Below, one piece after another: positions 26,830-35,297 of a DNA stretch of 64,000 bases. Each line of letters opens with the position of its first letter. Position 1 is the stretch's first letter. The stretch is from the NCBI GenBank assembly GCA_963662405.2, contig CAXXKT010000002.1, positions 256,001 to 320,000 on the forward strand, in the 5' to 3' direction. This DNA is from Syntrophales bacterium (GTDB lineage Bacteria; Desulfobacterota; Syntrophia; Syntrophales; UBA2210). The translations under genes and the position numbers were made by a program. Under the pieces are notes generated by a model. The model was not told where the DNA came from and did no database searches. It saw nothing but the letters and a program-made list of their open reading frames with translations.

Positions 26830-27132
26830 TCACTCACCGATAATCTTCACGAGGACCCGTTTTTTTCGCCTTCCATCGAACTCACCGTAGAAGATCTGTT
26901 CCCAAGGACCGAAATCGATCCGTCCCTCCGTGACGGCCGCGACGACCTCCCGCCCCATGACCTGGCGTTTCAGATGGGCATCTCCGTTGTCCTCCCCCGT
27001 CCGGTTGTGGAGATACCCCGAGACCGGCTCATGAGGGGCAAGCCCCTCCAGCCACCGCTCATAATCCTGGTGGAGCCCGGACTCGTCGTCGTTGATGAAG
27101 ACCGACGCCGTGATGTGCATGGCGTTTACCAA
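26830..27132 (-). pseudogene. yjbQ: yjbQ (UPF0047) 3' part, interrupted by integrated element
   Basis: [20 protein letters not shown]...[14 protein letters not shown]...[13 protein letters not shown]; lacks the first ~39 aa, found at 35178-35297. Confidence 0.92.
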
Positions 27133-27192
27133 ATAAAACTAGTTATGGCATAGGCTATAGGATTACAGGCCTTCCTTTAGCTATGGAGAGCT

Positions 27193-27216
27193 AAAGGCCG
27201 ATTTCCGGCCTTTTTT
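27193..27216 (+). terminator. intrinsic terminator; follows the integrase stop only in the excised circle
   Basis: AAAGGCCG-ATTTC-CGGCCTTT-TTT; no + strand gene precedes it in the integrated state. Confidence 0.75.
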
Positions 27217-27250
27217 CCACTGACAACACCCGTAAAGGCGATATTTTTAT

Positions 27251-27517
27251 ATGGTAAGAACGAAGCAAAGTCAAGCTATCAGTGAAGAAGCGGTAGGGGA
27301 TACCCCCCCGGCACCGAAGATCAGGCGCAGGAAATTGAAGACCCTTGCTGATCTGTCCCGGTTCATGTCCAGTTTAATCAATGACACCCGGTGCGGTGAT
27401 GTTGATCCTGCATTGGCCAGTAAGTTGGCTTACATGACAAACATCCTCAAATCCATTATCAGCGAGGCTGATATCGAAACCCGGTTGGCGGCGTTAGAAA
27501 AAGAGATGCAAAAATAA
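27251..27517 (+). CDS. hypothetical protein (helical, C-terminal IETRLAALE)
   Basis: 88-aa ORF, first of four co-oriented element genes. Confidence 0.75.
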   Translation: MVRTKQSQAISEEAVGDTPPAPKIRRRKLKTLADLSRFMSSLINDTRCGDVDPALASKLAYMTNILKSIISEADIETRLAALEKEMQK

Positions 27518-27535
27518 AACGAAAGGAGAAGATCA

Positions 27536-27883
27536 ATGTCAAAGAAAAGCAGAATCGAGGATCTGGAACAAAGGTATGAGAAAGATTCAGACGTGATCAC
27601 GGGTGTGCAGTGGTTTGGCCCAACTCAGATCATGGTTGACGGCGTGATGTATTCATCCCTTGAAGACATTCCGGAAGACCTGAGGGAGAAATATCCAAAC
27701 CTCGGCACCGAAGATCCCGAAAAAGCCGAAAGCCTTTATCAGCAACTTGCACCCTTCCGGGAGGCGTGCGCAAAATTTCCACGGTTTAAGGCAGAGCACC
27801 CGGCAGAGTTTGCCCGATCGCAGGAATTAACAGAGAAACATGAAACCTACGTAAAACAAAATCAAATAACAGAAGGAGAATGA
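27536..27883 (+). CDS. hypothetical protein
   Basis: 115 aa; AAGGAG RBS. Confidence 0.75.
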   Translation: MSKKSRIEDLEQRYEKDSDVITGVQWFGPTQIMVDGVMYSSLEDIPEDLREKYPNLGTEDPEKAESLYQQLAPFREACAKFPRFKAEHPAEFARSQELTEKHETYVKQNQITEGE

Positions 27884-27886
27884 AAA

Positions 27887-28135
27887 ATGGACAAACAAAC
27901 AGTAATGGCATGGCAAACAGTTGACGTTGGCTTGAAGGACCTGATGCGCAATAATGATGAACTGGAATTACCCGAACTCAGGGCCAAAACTCGGCGATTA
28001 CGGCACCTGGGCAAATTCATTGAGCGGCTGGCCAAACGGGTCGACGAGCGAATCCGAGACGGAGTGAAACCGGGTGATATTGAGGAGTTGTTCATTCAGT
28101 ACACCACAGGCCGGGATGCAATTGACGGAAATTAA
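27887..28135 (+). CDS. hypothetical protein
   Basis: 82 aa; AAGGAG RBS. Confidence 0.7.
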   Translation: MDKQTVMAWQTVDVGLKDLMRNNDELELPELRAKTRRLRHLGKFIERLAKRVDERIRDGVKPGDIEELFIQYTTGRDAIDGN

Positions 28136-28157
28136 ACAACGAGAGGAGAAAATACAA

Positions 28158-28814
28158 ATGGACCCATTGAGATTACAAGTTTATGAAAGTTTCTTAGAGA
28201 CAAAATCAGGTGATGAAAAGCTCGATGATTTGAATGCGAATTTCGGCGCGCACGTCCGGGGCATCCTTAATCAATTCGAAGAAACCAAACAGCGGATTGA
28301 TACGAAGGCTAACTTACTCACCCCGGCAGGACGGGAAGCGGAGCTGGCAAAAGCACGGGAAAAAGTGATTGAGGCCCTGAAGGAAATCGACGCAAAGGGT
28401 TCCTTTTCACCGGACATAAAAGAGATCAATAAAAAGTTTGATGTTGATGGAAATGCAACCGACATTCAAACGCTGATTACAGAAGGCCGCCAGCGCGAGA
28501 CAAGGGAATACTTGCGCTCCCTAAATGCGAAATCCGACTTGAAAGAAATGGAGATGATCAAGTTGAAGATTGCCGACGGGGATCCAACCATCGTGGGAGC
28601 GATAGCGAACGCACCTTACAAGGTAATGGATATTGACCCTGCAATACTGGAGGTCGGGATCGAGAAAATGCGATTACGCACAAACCCGCAGGCGGCGCAG
28701 CGGCTCGAGGTATTGACCACGGCACAAGATGTTCACGAAAACCTTATAACTTTCGCACGACAGGAAATCGGTGCAATTCCTGATGCGGAAAGCTCTTATT
28801 CCGTGAACGTCTGA
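28158..28814 (+). CDS. hypothetical helical protein
   Basis: Start MDPLRLQ after GAGGAG; 218 aa. Confidence 0.75.
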   Translation: MDPLRLQVYESFLETKSGDEKLDDLNANFGAHVRGILNQFEETKQRIDTKANLLTPAGREAELAKAREKVIEALKEIDAKGSFSPDIKEINKKFDVDGNATDIQTLITEGRQRETREYLRSLNAKSDLKEMEMIKLKIADGDPTIVGAIANAPYKVMDIDPAILEVGIEKMRLRTNPQAAQRLEVLTTAQDVHENLITFARQEIGAIPDAESSYSVNV

Positions 28815-28824
28815 GCAAAGACAA

Positions 28825-28955
28825 GGCCGGGTCATCCGCTCCCCGGTCGCAAGGGTGTGCGGCTACAATCCCCGCATACCCGACATGGTGAGGGGTCAAC
28901 CGCTTTCCCCTCGCTCCGGGAGTCGGGGCAGGCTTCGGAAACTGTCCCGATTCCC
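28825..28955 (+). ncRNA. candidate structured RNA (four tandem hairpins)
   Basis: Stems 28825-28848, 28853-28881, 28888-28914, 28918-28955; all five non-Watson-Crick pairs are G-U on the + strand. Confidence 0.5.
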
Positions 28956-28964
28956 TTATAATGA

Positions 28965-29021
28965 CCCCCGTGAGTAGGTGTTTTTCATTCTGTAAGGCGT
29001 TTAAATCGAAAAGAGGTATAA
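28965..29021 (+). repeat. direct repeat copy 1 upstream of polymerase gene
   Basis: CCCCCGTGA-N14-TTCTGTAAGGCGTTTAAA-N9-GGTATAA. Confidence 0.85.
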
Positions 29022-29052
29022 AGGGTAGGGGAGAAAAGCAAAGGCTTTATTT

Positions 29053-29082
29053 TTGAAAAAAAGAGGTGTTCAGAAGTATAAT
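29053..29082 (+). promoter_or_regulatory. sigma70-type promoter for the polymerase gene
   Basis: TTGAAA-N18-TATAAT. Confidence 0.55.
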
Positions 29083-29191
29083 AGAATATCGGGGATAGGC
29101 AACAGCTGGCCGAATCGGAACAGGGAGTCCTCGCTTCTTGTTTCTTTCCCCGATAATTATATAAATCAAAATCGAGGGAGACGAGGACAAG

Positions 29192-30448
29192 ATGAAACGA
29201 AGGATTCCAAGGGGAGCCATCATCGCCATCGTGCGGAGAGATATTGAGCTTGAGAAACAAACTCCCGCGTGGTTACAGGAGGCGGTGGCATTCGATCATT
29301 CCCTGCGGTTGCTGCCGGATGAACTTCCTATTGCTCACAAATTGCTTTCGACATTACTGGAGGGCCAGCCGGGATATAAGCTCGATCAAAAGAAGTTCGA
29401 CGCAGAAGTCCTTATTTCAAATTTGCTTGATCACAAAAACAAACCCACGTCGATTTCCTTTGATTCCGGCTATTGGACGAAAAGCAGGTATAAACAAACG
29501 AGCGCTTACGTCTTAAAATTGGTGAATGAAATGCAAGAACAAGGAATGATCGAACTGCGGAAGGGTTATTTCACCACGGAAGAGAGCCGTCGAACACGGA
29601 TCTGGGCGACTGAAACACTCTTGGATTACTTTCCAAAACTTTCACCCCATGTTTTCAGGGAACCTGTTGAACTGGTTGAGCTGAGGGATGCAAAAGGGAA
29701 GCTCAAGGAGTATCGGGACACCGGGGAAACGCATCGTATCCGGGCGGTGTTGGAGCGGGTCAATGAGGTCAATGCAGAGGCACACATTCAATATCGAAAG
29801 TTCAGACTGGTTGCACACCTCCATGCAATTTTCAAAGAACGGTTCACCATGTACGGACGCCTTCACACAAGGGGTTATCGACACTATCAGGGCTTTGATG
29901 AAGATGAGCGAGCGGAAATTACTATCAATGGGGAACCTGTCACTGAACTTGATTTCAGTGGATTACACCCGCGCTTGCTCTATGCAAAAGAAGGAATCCA
30001 GTTTGATGAAGATCCATATTCCCTTGTCAACGAAAACCCGATTGCAAGGCCATTTTTAAAGCACGTACTTCTTTTTCTGCTCAATTCCACAGACGAAGTT
30101 TCCGCAGAGGCGGCGGCGAATTACTGGCTATTCCGAAACCCCGGCGAGCGTGGGAGATTACAGGAAATCGGTATTACACGAGCGCGACCCATTATCGACG
30201 CTTTCAAAGAAGCACACGCACTCATATCACATCATTTTTGCACCGGCAAAAGGACAGGACTTCGCATAATGAATCTTGATGCCAAAATTGCGTTGGATGT
30301 GGTTCATCATTTTGCGGAACAGAATATCCCGATACTGGCTGTGCACGATAGCTTTCTTGTTCAAAGCCGGTTTGAGAACCAACTGAGAAAAGTTATGAAT
30401 GATTCTTATTGCAAACATACCAAGGGTTTTCATTGTCCGATCAAGTAA
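29192..30448 (+). CDS. minimal polymerase of the family-A DNA polymerase/T7 RNA polymerase superfamily
   Basis: YGRLH..YQ..R, motif A-like ELDFSGLHPRLLY, DPY, motif B-like RPFLKHVLLFLLN, motif C LAVHDSF; possible N-terminal winged helix. Confidence 0.75.
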   Translation: MKRRIPRGAIIAIVRRDIELEKQTPAWLQEAVAFDHSLRLLPDELPIAHKLLSTLLEGQPGYKLDQKKFDAEVLISNLLDHKNKPTSISFDSGYWTKSRYKQTSAYVLKLVNEMQEQGMIELRKGYFTTEESRRTRIWATETLLDYFPKLSPHVFREPVELVELRDAKGKLKEYRDTGETHRIRAVLERVNEVNAEAHIQYRKFRLVAHLHAIFKERFTMYGRLHTRGYRHYQGFDEDERAEITINGEPVTELDFSGLHPRLLYAKEGIQFDEDPYSLVNENPIARPFLKHVLLFLLNSTDEVSAEAAANYWLFRNPGERGRLQEIGITRARPIIDAFKEAHALISHHFCTGKRTGLRIMNLDAKIALDVVHHFAEQNIPILAVHDSFLVQSRFENQLRKVMNDSYCKHTKGFHCPIK

Positions 30449-30515
30449 TAATAATTTTATGGACTTTTTTTAATAAAATTAAATTGTTACCCTCAATTCC
30501 TATAAGTTAAAATGA

Positions 30516-30595
30516 AATACAATAGGAAAGCAAGGATAAAATACAAGAATAGGATAGAATACAAGGATAGGAAAGGGTAAAGAATAGAAAGGGAA
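30516..30595 (+). repeat. purine-rich degenerate tandem repeats (iteron-like)
   Basis: Three AATACAA...ATAGGA-type units plus AAGGATA repeats in an AT-rich region. Confidence 0.55.
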
Positions 30596-30740
30596 GTTTC
30601 AATAGGTTCATTTTTGTCTAAAAAAATTACCCTCCCACTTCTTCGTTGAAAGACCATCCTTCCATCTCCTGAAGAATAGGGGGTTGCACCCCTCCAATAG
30701 CAAAACCCCTCCCGTCCCGGTCACGTAAGCGGCATAACAC

Positions 30741-30798
30741 CCCCCGTGAATCGGGGTATTGCGTTCTGTAAGGCGTTTAAAAGGGCAGGTTGGTATAA
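30741..30798 (+). repeat. direct repeat copy 2 downstream of polymerase gene
   Basis: CCCCCGTGA-N14-TTCTGTAAGGCGTTTAAA-N10-GGTATAA. Confidence 0.85.
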
Positions 30799-30986
30799 TC
30801 CTATACCTTGGATATCCAAATCGGTTTAAGACGGCGAAAACGCAGGGAAAGGACACCATCCAAATCAGAACAAATCAGCATTTAATATATGGTTGTAAAA
30901 ATATGGTAGGAAAACAAAACATGAACATATCTTCCTGAAAGCGGTAAAAACCCGAGTGAAGAAATAATAATGGTTTCTTTCAGTAA

Positions 30987-31113
30987 TCATTACGGATTGT
31001 TCACCCGCCGGGAACCCAATGTTGACTTGCTTTTAAGAAACGTTGAAAGCTGAAGGCCCTATGTAAAAAGGCCGCCCCGGGTTCCCGGTCGAGTGTGAAA
31101 CAAATTGTTATAC
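30987..31113 (-). other. integron attC-like site downstream of HNH gene
   Basis: R'' GTATAAC overlapping the stop codon; arms TTGTTTCAC..CCGGGAACCC / GGGTTCCCGG..GTGAACAA; degenerate R' GTAATGA. Confidence 0.7.
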
Positions 31114-31794
31114 CAAGTTTTTGCATATTATTTCATTGTGGTAACTGACATATTCAGGAAGCACAGACCTGAAAAGGTCTTCATCAATTTTGACTGCGCC
31201 GTAATCAAATTTCACATGGCAATTCGGACACAAACATACAATATTTCCTAAATGGTCAGGCCCGTTGTGTGGAGACCCAAGGGGCTTTACATGGTGAGCC
31301 TCAGCGTACGGATTGTTATCAGGTAACATAATCCGGCTCCCACAAAGCTGGCACTTGTAATCATTGTCTGCTTTTACACGTCTCGCTAAAGCTGTATCTC
31401 TTAAAACACGATAAGTTGAAACAAGGTGACGTTCAATTAATTCAGGTTCATTATAATCTGATGCGATTGGAGTCGCCTGTTTTGATGTAAAAAACTGATT
31501 GACTCTGTCTTCTTCACGCTGTCTATAGCATGATTTTAAAATCCAGTTTTCTAATTCCTTTGAATTATCATTGATCCACACACTGATCATCCGATCAATT
31601 TCGTTCGAACTTAATGTGTATGGAGTATTTTTCCCAACAAGATGGGCATAAACGGTACGATAATCCACACCACGAGAAGCAACATGAGAAACCGCTTTTC
31701 TTCTCCAAAAACTTGCAGATCTATTTGGATTCTGTTTTGAAAAATCGCTAATAAGATCTAATACCTCTAAAATGTCCGCAATTCTTTGACTCAT
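31108..31794 (-). CDS. HNH endonuclease
   Basis: CQLC, YAEAHHVKPLG, GPD..GNIVCLCPNCHVKFD. Confidence 0.9.
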   Translation of the reverse strand: MSQRIADILEVLDLISDFSKQNPNRSASFWRRKAVSHVASRGVDYRTVYAHLVGKNTPYTLSSNEIDRMISVWINDNSKELENWILKSCYRQREEDRVNQFFTSKQATPIASDYNEPELIERHLVSTYRVLRDTALARRVKADNDYKCQLCGSRIMLPDNNPYAEAHHVKPLGSPHNGPDHLGNIVCLCPNCHVKFDYGAVKIDEDLFRSVLPEYVSYHNEIICKNLV

Positions 31795-31812
31795 GTCCTA
31801 TGACCTTTGGTG

Positions 31813-31868
31813 GTATAATGCGGCGGATGACCTGCCCCGCAGGGGACAAGTCCATCCGCTGGTTCGGG
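31813..31868 (-). other. integron attC-like site upstream of HNH gene
   Basis: CCCGAAC-CAGCGGATGGACTTGTCCCCTGCGGGGCAGGTCATCCGCCGC-ATTATAC; 56-bp imperfect palindrome with bulged bases. Confidence 0.65.
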
Positions 31869-32608
31869 AGGCGCTGCGCGCCGAGCGAACCAGCTCAGGG
31901 CAGCCGCCGCATGTTCAGGGGGTGTGGAGCGGTCTTATCGCGGAGCGCCCCCTGAACAGTGTTTATATTGTTTCTGTATAAAAACCAAACATAGCTGAAA
32001 CAGCTACGTAATACATATTTTAATTACGGAGAAAATCATTACAAGTTGCTGTAATACAAAGATTATTATGAAAATCTTCGTTTATTGAGGTGTGTTATAC
32101 AGAAACTATGTAATACTCTTTTCCGCGTTCACGTAACCCCGATATTTTCTAAGTTGCCCAAAAAAACAAAAAAGCCCCATCTCTCTTTTTGAGAAACAGG
32201 GCTTTGATGATCAGACCATAATCCCCTCCGGTTACAGCCAGCCAAAAGCAGAGAAAAAATAAAGATCAAATCCGGTATTTAGGTAACTCTATGATGCTTT
32301 ATTGTCAAGAAATTTTACGTCGAGACCTTCAACCGGTAATAATCGATTTTCTCCCAAGATTATTTTGAGTGTTAGTAGGTGAATCCAATAAATGATGACG
32401 TCGAGAATGAGTTCGTCTTAAGCTCGCCGGAGGCGGCACCTACCCTTCTTATAAAAGATCAATCAATCTTTTTAAAACTACTCCATATATTTTAAAGGTT
32501 AATTAAATATTGGCTTTTTATTTAATAAAACACTTTATTTTTATTTAATGATGATATATAATATAAATCAAAATAAATGGTATTCATTAAATATAGGAGG
32601 GTTTGATT

Positions 32609-33256
32609 ATGGAAAGGAAAAAGAGAGTAAAAGCGGCCCCGGTAAAGACTATTGCCTATCTGCGGGTCAGCACCGATGCTCAGGATGTCGAAAAGAACAA
32701 AGCTGATATTCTTTCCTTTGCCAATAGTAGAGCTTTTGTCCCGGTTGAATTTGTCACAGAAAAGATATCTGGTTCGAAGAATTGGAAGGAACGAAAAATC
32801 AAAGGGATCATAGACCGGTTTAATAAAGGTGACCGATTGATCGTCCCTGAGTTGTCACGGCTGGGCAGGTCAATGTTGGAGATAATGGAGATACTGGCCA
32901 TTGCGAAGGAAAAAGAGATTGCAATTTACGATCTGAAAAACGGCTGGACGTTAAACGGCACCATTGAAAGCAAGATCCTTGCGATGGTGTTTTCTATTGC
33001 CAGTGAGATCGAGCGTGACCTGATTCGGAAAAGAACAGGTGAGGGACTCAAGGCGGCAAAGGCTCGGGGGGTTGTTCTGGGACGGCCTAAAGGCCCCGGC
33101 AAGTCAAAGCTGGATCCCCACAAAGAAGAGATCGTTGCCCTCCTGAAGACCGGAAGCAAGAAGAATTACATTGCAAAGAAGTATTCCTGCACCCCGGCCA
33201 ATCTTTGGAACTGGTTGAAAAGAAATAACATTCAGGATATCAAACCTGAATTTTAA
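32609..33256 (+). CDS. small serine recombinase (resolvase/invertase) with C-terminal HTH
   Basis: AYLRVST, ELSRLGRS, ERDLIRKRT.EGL.AAKARG..LGRP; AGGAGG RBS; long AT-rich upstream region (possible res site). Confidence 0.93.
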   Translation: MERKKRVKAAPVKTIAYLRVSTDAQDVEKNKADILSFANSRAFVPVEFVTEKISGSKNWKERKIKGIIDRFNKGDRLIVPELSRLGRSMLEIMEILAIAKEKEIAIYDLKNGWTLNGTIESKILAMVFSIASEIERDLIRKRTGEGLKAAKARGVVLGRPKGPGKSKLDPHKEEIVALLKTGSKKNYIAKKYSCTPANLWNWLKRNNIQDIKPEF

Positions 33257-33362
33257 AAACTCAAGCAAGTTTTATATATTTTACCTAAATTTTACTTTAT
33301 TTATCAAACGGAACACTTTATAATCAAGGCAAATAAAAAAACCGTTAGCGGAGCCATGTCTT

Positions 33363-33542
33363 ATGAAAGGTGAAAGAATTACAATCAAAAAAGGGCTGGG
33401 CGAATTAAAGACCTGCACATTTTATCTGCCGGAAAAGGTGCACATGAGTGTGAAGGTTGCGGCTGCTCGTCGGGGGATTCCAATGTCACAGATTATGATC
33501 GACGCCCTCCTCTTGTACTTCGAGCAGAAAAGGCCAGAGTGA
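33363..33542 (+). CDS. ribbon-helix-helix DNA-binding protein (59 aa, not in ORF track)
   Basis: MKGERITIKKGLGELKTCTFYLPEKVHMSVKVAAARRGIPMSQIMIDALLLYFEQKRPE; beta-helix-G.SMS-like-helix pattern. Confidence 0.75.
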   Translation: MKGERITIKKGLGELKTCTFYLPEKVHMSVKVAAARRGIPMSQIMIDALLLYFEQKRPE

Positions 33543-33562
33543 ATAAGGGAGGATTTTTACGC

Positions 33563-35197
33563 ATGCGGTTTGCACCAATCATCAGAGTCAGCACTGAGGG
33601 TCAGGAAAGAAAAGGCGAGTCCCTCCGAACACAAACCACGCAGATTATGCAGTACGTCCAAAATCTAAAGGGAACTGTCCCGGAGCATTGCTTGCGGTAT
33701 GTTGGGCAGGAGCACGCGACCCCGAATCAAGAGCGGAGGAAGCTGGACAGCTTGCTTGAAGATTCTAGCAAGAATTTGTTTGATGCCGTTATCGTCTGTG
33801 ATGCTTCCAGATGGAGTCGGGATAATTTGAAAAGTAAGAAGGGATTGGAGATTCTGCGCAATAACAATATTCGGTTCTTTGTCGGAATGATGGAATATGA
33901 TCTTTTCAATCCGGAGCACAGCTTTTACCTGGGTATGTCTGCGGAGATAGGTGAATTGCAGGCACGGCAACAAAAACAAAAATCAATGATCAATAGGATC
34001 GAAAGGGCCAAACGTGGACTTCCCAGCGTCGGCAAGTTGCCTTACGGGCGCACATATGATTGCGACAAGGGATGGGGAATTGACTCGGACAAGCAAAAGA
34101 AGATCCAACAGGCGGCGGAACGCTACTTGCAAGGAGAGGGTATTGTGCAAATCTCTTCTTCCCTAGATATGAACGTTTCAAATCTCTGGAAAATCCTCAA
34201 CCACCGTTCTGGAGATAAATGGCAGCAGACATTCCGGGCACCGGATTTGAACATTGACGAGACGGTTGAAATATCAATCCCTCCCCTCCTTGATGAACAA
34301 ACGATTAATGCAATTTATGAACGTGCCAGAGCGAACAAAACCTATACCCACGGGGAAATCAAAAACCGCTACTTGCTGAGAAGAATGATCTTTTGCGCAA
34401 AGTGTGGGGGTGCTCTTTTTGGACAGACCAACCATCAAACAAAGAGGTATTACAGGCACACCCGCCACAAAAAGAACTGCACTTGTCATTTCCAGAGTTG
34501 GCTTCCGGCTGATTTGATTGAAAATTCAGTTTTGATTCACCTTATCGGTGCCTTTGGAGATGTGGAGAGGTTAAAGAAAGCGGTGGATCGGGCGACCCCT
34601 GACCTTGACAAACTGGACCGTCTAGCAGAGGAACAGGAAACCCTTGCAGGGGAATTGAAAAAGATTCTCTCCCGGAAAGAGCATGTCATTGATATGATCG
34701 AAGACGGGCTTCTCTCAAAAGAGGAAGTTAAACTACGTATGGAGAAACTACGGGAACGGGAAGCAAACATCCAAACTCGTTTGATGACTATCGAAGATCA
34801 GTTGGAGAGTGTCCCGGATCCTGCTAGAGTGAAGAGGCTATCCGAATTCGGTTTGGCGGTTCTTGTCAATGCGACAAAGAACAGCCCGCAGCTCATCTTC
34901 TCCAAGTCCTACGAATGGAAACGAAATCTGGTTGAGCATGCTTTCGGTGGCAAGGATACCAACGGCCAACGGCTCGGCGTGTACATTGAAGAAACCGGAG
35001 ATAGGAAACAGCCTTGGCGGTTTGAGATTCGGGGGTTACTCGAAAATACCCTAATTGGGTTGCCTCTCCCTGACGAATATTTGGAAGATGCTTTCCATTT
35101 GGACCCTGAATTTCAAGATATTCAGGAAGAGTTACAAAAGATTAGAAAAGCTATAACTAGTTTTACTTCGTATTACACAAAAGAAGCCCTTCCCTGA
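33563..35197 (+). CDS. large serine recombinase (integrase)
   Basis: IRVST catalytic Ser, SRWSRD, recombinase domain, CAKCG..CTC zinc ribbon, coiled coil; GGAGG RBS; ORF crosses the right junction. Confidence 0.95.
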
Positions 35198-35297
35198 TCC
35201 CGCTCTCCCGCAGGCACTCTTCCACCTGCAGCGTGATATTGACAAAACCCCTTCTCGAGGGGATGTTGAACCATAGTTCTTTCCTGTAACTTTTCAC
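35178..35297 (-). pseudogene. yjbQ: yjbQ 5' part (codons 1-40)
   Basis: GTG start after [46 protein letters not shown]; joins in frame to VNAMHITAS at 27129. Confidence 0.92.

Follow-up and report, generated by a model that had tools for sequence, protein, structure and literature searches.

The integrase of the myxophages Mx8 and Mx9 is a tyrosine recombinase. Its attP lies within the int coding sequence, and integration gives the gene a new 3' end by which the enzyme is not inactivated but altered in its behaviour (PMC6070905); the tyrosine recombinase identity of the Mx8 enzyme is also implied by PMC4383910. An att site inside the integrase gene is likewise found in the archaeal suicidal integrases of SSV1, pTN3 and pT26-2 (PMC8371274; PMC4383910), tyrosine enzymes that are split in two with the catalytic domain separated. 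In mycobacteriophage BPs, attP is located in the 3' end of the gene for the gp33 repressor, which has state-specific C-termini, and the long form is degraded via an ssrA-like tag (PMC4557955). DsiB of the ssrA-specific genomic islands of Dehalococcoides is a large (~540-aa) serine recombinase whose 3' end always overlaps attL, and its authors suggested that full function is confined to the circular state (McMurdie et al. 2011, PMC3146451). An attP inside int is already known from Mx8 and the archaeal suicidal integrases, and the serine case was raised for dsiB in 2011 as a conjecture.

Here we describe a family of large serine integrases that target the protein gene yjbQ and hold attP within their own coding sequence, starting from an element in the window, by which we mean the whole 64,000-nucleotide stretch of a Syntrophales bacterium genome that was analysed. 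As described for DsiB, the window integrase is a serine integrase that overlaps the att junction at its 3' end and has divergent integrated tails, and its element also carries a second small serine recombinase, as the DsiB module does with DsiA (PMC3146451). Compared by description, the two differ in target, which is ssrA with a direct repeat for DsiB and here yjbQ, entered in both orientations with a 2-bp core; the available part of that paper describes no conserved circle tail, whereas tail conservation is measured here. As in Mx8, attP lies within int and integration provides a new C-terminus, but the Mx8/Mx9 enzyme is a phage tyrosine recombinase and the present one a serine integrase of an 8-kb element that is not phage-like. 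By analogy the window integrase may therefore work like that of Mx8 but, belonging to the serine family, is no member of its group. Whereas the archaeal enzymes lose their catalytic domain to the other half, just 22 terminal codons move here, and whereas gp33 is a repressor with an ssrA-like tag, this is an integrase in which a sequence test found no conserved terminal tag. A literature search outside subscription papers turned up no publication on a serine integrase that targets yjbQ, and in the available parts of PMC12884075 and PMC13626063 neither an attP-spanning layout nor yjbQ is mentioned in the terms looked up; in Vibrio cholerae, yjbQ has been named a hotspot for islands (10.1101/2024.07.25.605194).

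The element and its cargo

When the ends of the element are rejoined, the window shows a host yjbQ gene split by 8,048 bp of inserted DNA (Table 1). Neither a second copy of the integrase nor an intact orthologous yjbQ was found in the same genome, which holds only two distant yjbQ paralogs. Since the window element carries no yjbQ copy, the host is left without an intact yjbQ until excision. For comparison we used 21 closed elements: 16 were closed within one locus (the duplicates L142 and L193 were dropped), four with further DNA, and L040, which has a target other than yjbQ, by a dyad call. In L003, which has two candidate left ends, the inner one was used; it lacks the tail motif described below and the outer one has it. 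A whole yjbQ copy is carried by 10 of the 21 elements (L001, L003, L004, L007, L011, L017, L018, L020, L143 and L155), in many cases immediately 5' of the integrase gene (14 locus rows). Such a copy would complement the split host gene, yet it brings an attB-like site.

Table 1 Features of the yjbQ element in the window
Feature	Coordinates	Strand	Remarks
Whole element	27127..35174	.	8,048 bp; GC 37-51% versus ~53% in the left flank
yjbQ (UPF0047) 3' part, from the Asn codon of CNAMH	26830..27126	-	PF01894, E 1.4e-27; rejoined gene in frame
yjbQ 5' part	35175..35297	-	Antisense strand provides the integrated-state integrase tail and TGA
Left crossover dinucleotide TT (AA of the Asn codon on the yjbQ strand)	27125..27126	+	Same position in relatives
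Right crossover dinucleotide TT, within the integrase ORF	35173..35174	+	
P' arm of attP, inverted partner of 35148-35172	27127..27151	+	Inverted repeat; 21/25 symmetric
P arm of attP, within the integrase coding sequence	35148..35172	+	
Stored integrase 3' end, circle-only	27127..27194	+	22 codons and TAA; motif Gly is codon 16 from the junction
Intrinsic-terminator-like hairpin and U-tract, directly after the circle stop	27193..27216	+	Putative terminator
418-aa protein, phrog_4756 (unknown function)	29192..30448	+	Common to 9/21 elements
HNH endonuclease cargo gene	31108..31794	-	PF13391, E 4.6e-9
Small serine resolvase, second recombinase of the element	32603..33256	+	PF00239, E 4.4e-28; weak HTH_7
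59-aa putative transcription regulator, just 5' of the integrase	33363..33542	+	phrog_3887, E 0.0015
Large serine integrase, integrated (clipped) form	33539..35197	+	PF00239 and PF13408; phrog_95; last 7 residues from or across the junction

Blast clustering placed exactly one second recombinase in each of the 21 closed elements, a small serine resolvase in 13 and a tyrosine recombinase of ~200-230 aa in eight, never both; the classes were verified by Pfam in four elements. One such enzyme per element suggests either that the circle replicates and its multimers must be resolved, or that the enzyme takes part in excision, as was proposed for DsiA. For the 418-aa phrog_4756 protein, a replication role is our guess. 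Its gene is bracketed by a 48-nt direct repeat (81%, 28958-29005 and 30734-30781), possibly origin or binding sites. Several repeats with many genomic copies lie on both sides of the HNH gene, between 30950 and 32390, and we would guess at a cassette border, integron-like or of another kind.

No circle or empty-site joint of the window element was found in four read runs (all Logan contigs, depth ~2-5 on the element), a result with no bearing on whether the element excises. One 8-kb skip in run X4 was set aside, as it had 90% likeness with unknown letters in between and was taken as the intact yjbQ of another organism. Plasmid and phage collections gave no match to the circle-form DNA, and a search of viral contigs yielded no record of the family beyond the same two contigs.

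Crossover at the Asn codon of yjbQ

The element ends align at a single offset, 8,048, with two shared patches, TT and CAAA (27130-27133 and 35178-35181). CAAA starts three bases past TT in the same register, and yjbQ is rejoined in frame with either. The sequence-only reading had taken CAAA as the crossover, which was not borne out. The symmetry of attP is best when cut at TT, with 21 of 25 bases matching, and TT is its centre under either model. All seven empty yjbQ alleles from the same genus encode Cys-Asn-Ala-Met-His, in which the Cys before Asn is given by the TT model only; 12 empty loci from other genera, one of them cut off, mostly have Val or Ile at that place. The DNA matches of the same-genus empty alleles to the left flank end at 27126. 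In relatives, divergence sets in immediately past the AA of the Asn codon for the yjbQ 5' fragments and immediately ahead of it for the 3' fragments. The attP symmetry centre and the same-genus alleles led us to reject CAAA, a false core that arises because the P' arm at 27127-27134 mimics the Leu-Val codons of common yjbQ alleles. The same mimicry is seen in L003 and L034. With 9 of 25 symmetric bases, attB differs from attP. An attP symmetric about a central dinucleotide and insertion that splits a gene are features shared with canonical large serine integrases.

One gene with two 3' ends

In the integrated state the integrase comprises 552 aa from the GTG at 33539, or 544 aa from an ATG at 33563. 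Its catalytic domain matches PF00239 (E 1.5e-12), the Arg and Ser of the RVST motif being nearly invariant, and the DNA-binding/zinc-ribbon region matches PF13408 (E 9.7e-10) and not PF07508. The reading frame overruns the right junction by 23 nt and ends in antisense yjbQ with KEALP and a stop, which confirms the initial proposal that the att site is inside the integrase gene. On the reconstructed circle the frame encodes 567 aa and stops at the TAA at 27192-27194. This stop and most of the tail agree with the sequence-only reading; the first two swapped residues were misassigned, since a crossover at TT makes them Leu-Pro and not Tyr-Thr.

Both kinds of tail occur in natural homologs. The protein P0003, 74% identical to the window protein, bears a tail like the one stored in the window, and P0019 and P0121 are 96% identical over 537 aa before they part into a motif tail and an antisense-host-gene tail, respectively. 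A four-position pattern within the last 24 residues was present in 14 of the 120 listed homologs; eight of those 14 carry a circle tail that looks real by eye, and seven match a stricter pattern. For five of the eight the contig measures 7.9-11.8 kb, a length like that of the elements, which is only suggestive of free circles. With both tail types in natural proteins and the circle tail kept across the family, the idea that the two states yield two isoforms holds, with the amendment that they form a complete and a clipped version and not two purpose-built tails, the integrated ends being arbitrary.

The layout across the family

We examined 133 loci, leaving out 78 weak viral matches. The integrase match reached the C-terminal region in 112, where 62 had a yjbQ junction, 54 of them distinct. 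In 53 of these 54 the integrase stop lies beyond the crossover, so homologous integrases span their att site too; the exception, L039, is a broken gene that stops 121 nt early. The stop falls at the junction codon itself in 14 of the 54. Insertion is antisense in 31 junctions, with TT mostly at codon positions 3/1 (AG in L017), and sense in 23, with AA at codon positions 2/3. A tree of 87 proteins implies 13 changes of orientation, of which well-supported branches force no fewer than 6-8. Named hosts include Desulfobacterota, Bacteroidota, Spirochaetota and Planctomycetota, and a close homolog was found in 3 of 401 genomes of the window's phylum.

At loci without a yjbQ junction an in-place dyad scan gave no convincing attP (best L179, 18/25, no motif). 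In L002 (10001-14329) the integrase frame continues into a long ORF that has a methyltransferase-like motif and is probably the 3' part of BREX pglX. Translation of the flanks pointed to targets beyond the standard yjbQ site in L019, L040, L149, L169, L014 and L043; these are presumably a distant paralog of yjbQ (hit at the homologous position), a site next to a P-II (glnB/K)-like gene, and nucleosidase-like, dprA-like and peptidase-like genes. In L261 (G042:C9:526333-529285), two left ends of the P' type and additional yjbQ 3' fragments are lined up, a case of tandem or nested insertions at the same site.

The stored tail is conserved

Circle tails are 14-79 aa long and integrated tails 1-29 aa. 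The circle frame stays open for at least 13 codons in all 21 elements, compared with 9/21 and 7/21 for the other frames, each with a shuffle chance of 0.43. A hydrophobic-x-hydrophobic-x-Gly motif, defined post hoc and counted among elements that are kin, is present in 16 of the 21 circle tails (five lack it) and in two of 21 in each other frame. In each of the two register classes the motif keeps to the frame of the integrase (12 of 14 phase-2 and 4 of 7 phase-1 elements), and its Gly lies 12-19 codons from the junction, past the 25-bp binding arm. Conservation is therefore at the protein level, given a Gly beyond the binding arm that follows the integrase frame in both classes. A score that does not depend on the motif, the mean best 7-mer, was 11.6; the other frames scored 9.1 and 9.6, and none of 30 shuffles exceeded 9.6; the corresponding score of the integrated tails is uninformative, as all of them read the same host gene. 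Against this stands the one close pair compared codon by codon, L034/L040, in which ten codons changed, all non-synonymous, although the motif core was touched once only (Ile to Met). On comparative sequence grounds, the attP-spanning layout is real, family-wide and selected at the protein level, and the tail is kept in homologs, where an unconserved one would have counted against the sequence-only reading.

The sequence-only reading had drawn an analogy to mycobacteriophages, in which one tail would be a protease tag as in the BPs repressor. Several tails do end in hydrophobic residues two positions past the Gly, but the last three residues are unconserved in the 21 circle tails, 2-60 residues follow the motif Gly, and the model of P0003 folds the motif as a strand. 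An ssrA-like degron on the free form appears to fit poorly, and we consider it very improbable.

A predicted strand beyond the canonical fold

An AlphaFold model of P0003 (17-sequence alignment) had a mean pLDDT of 77 and contains a helix at 521-537 followed by a strand at 544-551 that corresponds to the motif (pLDDT ~58), the pairing partner of which is not visible. The window protein, predicted from a single sequence, gave a pLDDT of 40 and was unusable. Like SPbeta, LI/A118, Bxb1 and phiC31, the family has catalytic, DNA-binding, zinc-ribbon and coiled-coil parts; unlike them, it has a C-terminal extension of 50-60 residues that aligned to no listed chain and whose last strand is encoded across attP. 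The solved integrases align only to residues 1-503 of the P0003 model, with Z scores of 12-17 (SPbeta, Z 16.8, rmsd 13.6, 463 aligned; Bxb1, Z 14.0; LI, Z 12.9; phiC31 aligned too). Because they stop at residue 503, the clipped form retains the canonical enzyme and loses the added strand, and the circle tail is predicted to be an extra beta strand beyond the canonical integrase fold. An ESM Atlas search with integrase residues 440-560 returned only unnamed small-protein clusters with low shared counts, and a PDB sequence search only catalytic domains.

That the clipped form keeps the canonical fold, and that tails of 14-79 aa have a short motif alone in common, would also be expected if the attP overlap were a product of compaction or history, with a mildly stabilising tail and both forms alike. 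We regard such neutrality as unlikely, as the overlap outlasted the repeated changes of orientation and register described above, and a stop just before attP occurs in none of the 54 junctions bar the one broken gene.

The strand could instead be a built-in directionality switch, covering the RDF pocket so that integration would be all the complete form can do, and attL x attR excision would fall to the clipped form, unaided by an RDF. SPbeta integrase has an extreme C-terminus (aa 530-545, F532) that lines the pocket for the RDF and on which excision depends; it was called a toggle (10.1101/2025.01.03.631226). SPbeta residue 537 aligns to model residue 499, and no small gene is common to more than a few of the 21 elements. 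RDFs are diverse and hard to recognise, however, so the absence of a shared small gene is weak evidence for an RDF-free switch. The toggle maps to ~494-499, which both isoforms keep, and the swapped tail lies 45 residues further on; unaided excision by the clipped form would also make the integrated state unstable unless expression were held down. It is accordingly doubtful that this is an RDF-free family in which the circle-only strand holds the enzyme in integration mode and, once lost upon insertion, exposes the directionality pocket, turning the enzyme into an excisionase.

A terminator-like hairpin in some elements

The hairpin after the circle stop is GC-rich and reaches a folding energy of -17.2 kcal/mol when its flanks are included (z -3.8), a value matched by 1 of 200 shuffles; a simple terminator scan of the window did not list it. 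In the integrated state no plus-strand gene enters it, the neighbouring real left-side genes being on the minus strand. The proposal of an otherwise orphan terminator taken up right after the circle stop thus fits the window element but does not extend to the family: a terminator follows 6 of 21 circle tails versus 3 of 21 integrated stops, with 1.2 expected from shuffles. A strict test gave 4/21 versus 0/21, the integrated control skipping the junction-spanning codon. The terminator is an addition in some elements and not a rule of the yjbQ integrase family.

Discussion

Members of the yjbQ-targeting family hold attP within the last 15-25 codons of their own gene. On the free circle the integrase gene is complete, and we propose that the tail folds onto the C-terminal (zinc-ribbon) domain as a single additional beta strand; in the window element, the integrase transcript would end at the terminator. 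When the element enters the Asn codon of yjbQ, at its AA, the stored tail is shifted to the far end, which leaves a protein with the whole canonical integrase fold and an arbitrary host-derived end. The complete form may be the efficient attP x attB enzyme and the clipped form less active or less stable, such that recombination would be damped after insertion and rise again upon excision. We put this state-dependent dial, akin to that of Mx8, at a probability of roughly 45%. The activity difference between the two forms and its direction are what we infer.

The arbitrary integrated tails and the second recombinase in each of the 21 elements would equally suit a suicidal enzyme of the SSV1/pTN3 type, a logic described for the archaeal integrases (PMC8371274) and raised for dsiB (PMC3146451). 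The clipped protein would then be dead, and excision would depend on a complete integrase in trans or on the second recombinase. Just ~20 of 560 residues are lost, however, all outside the part that aligns to solved integrases, and in 53 of 54 cases the ORF reaches the junction undamaged; a dead clipped protein strikes us as improbable.

How directionality is controlled is the central question still facing work on serine integrases, and in SPbeta the C-terminus has already been linked to it. Natural pairs of isoforms that differ in the terminal strand only (the window protein, P0003 and P0019/P0121) make the 2011 dsiB conjecture directly testable. Annotation pipelines will probably miscall the C-termini of attP-spanning integrases. 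Mining of integrated elements would likewise clone the clipped form, and some 'inactive' candidates may work if read across attP. Should the RDF-free reading be true, the integrase gene, the att site and the directionality factor would be one unit. If instead the state-dependent dial is the true reading, the circle-only strand may be a built-in dial on jumping in and out.
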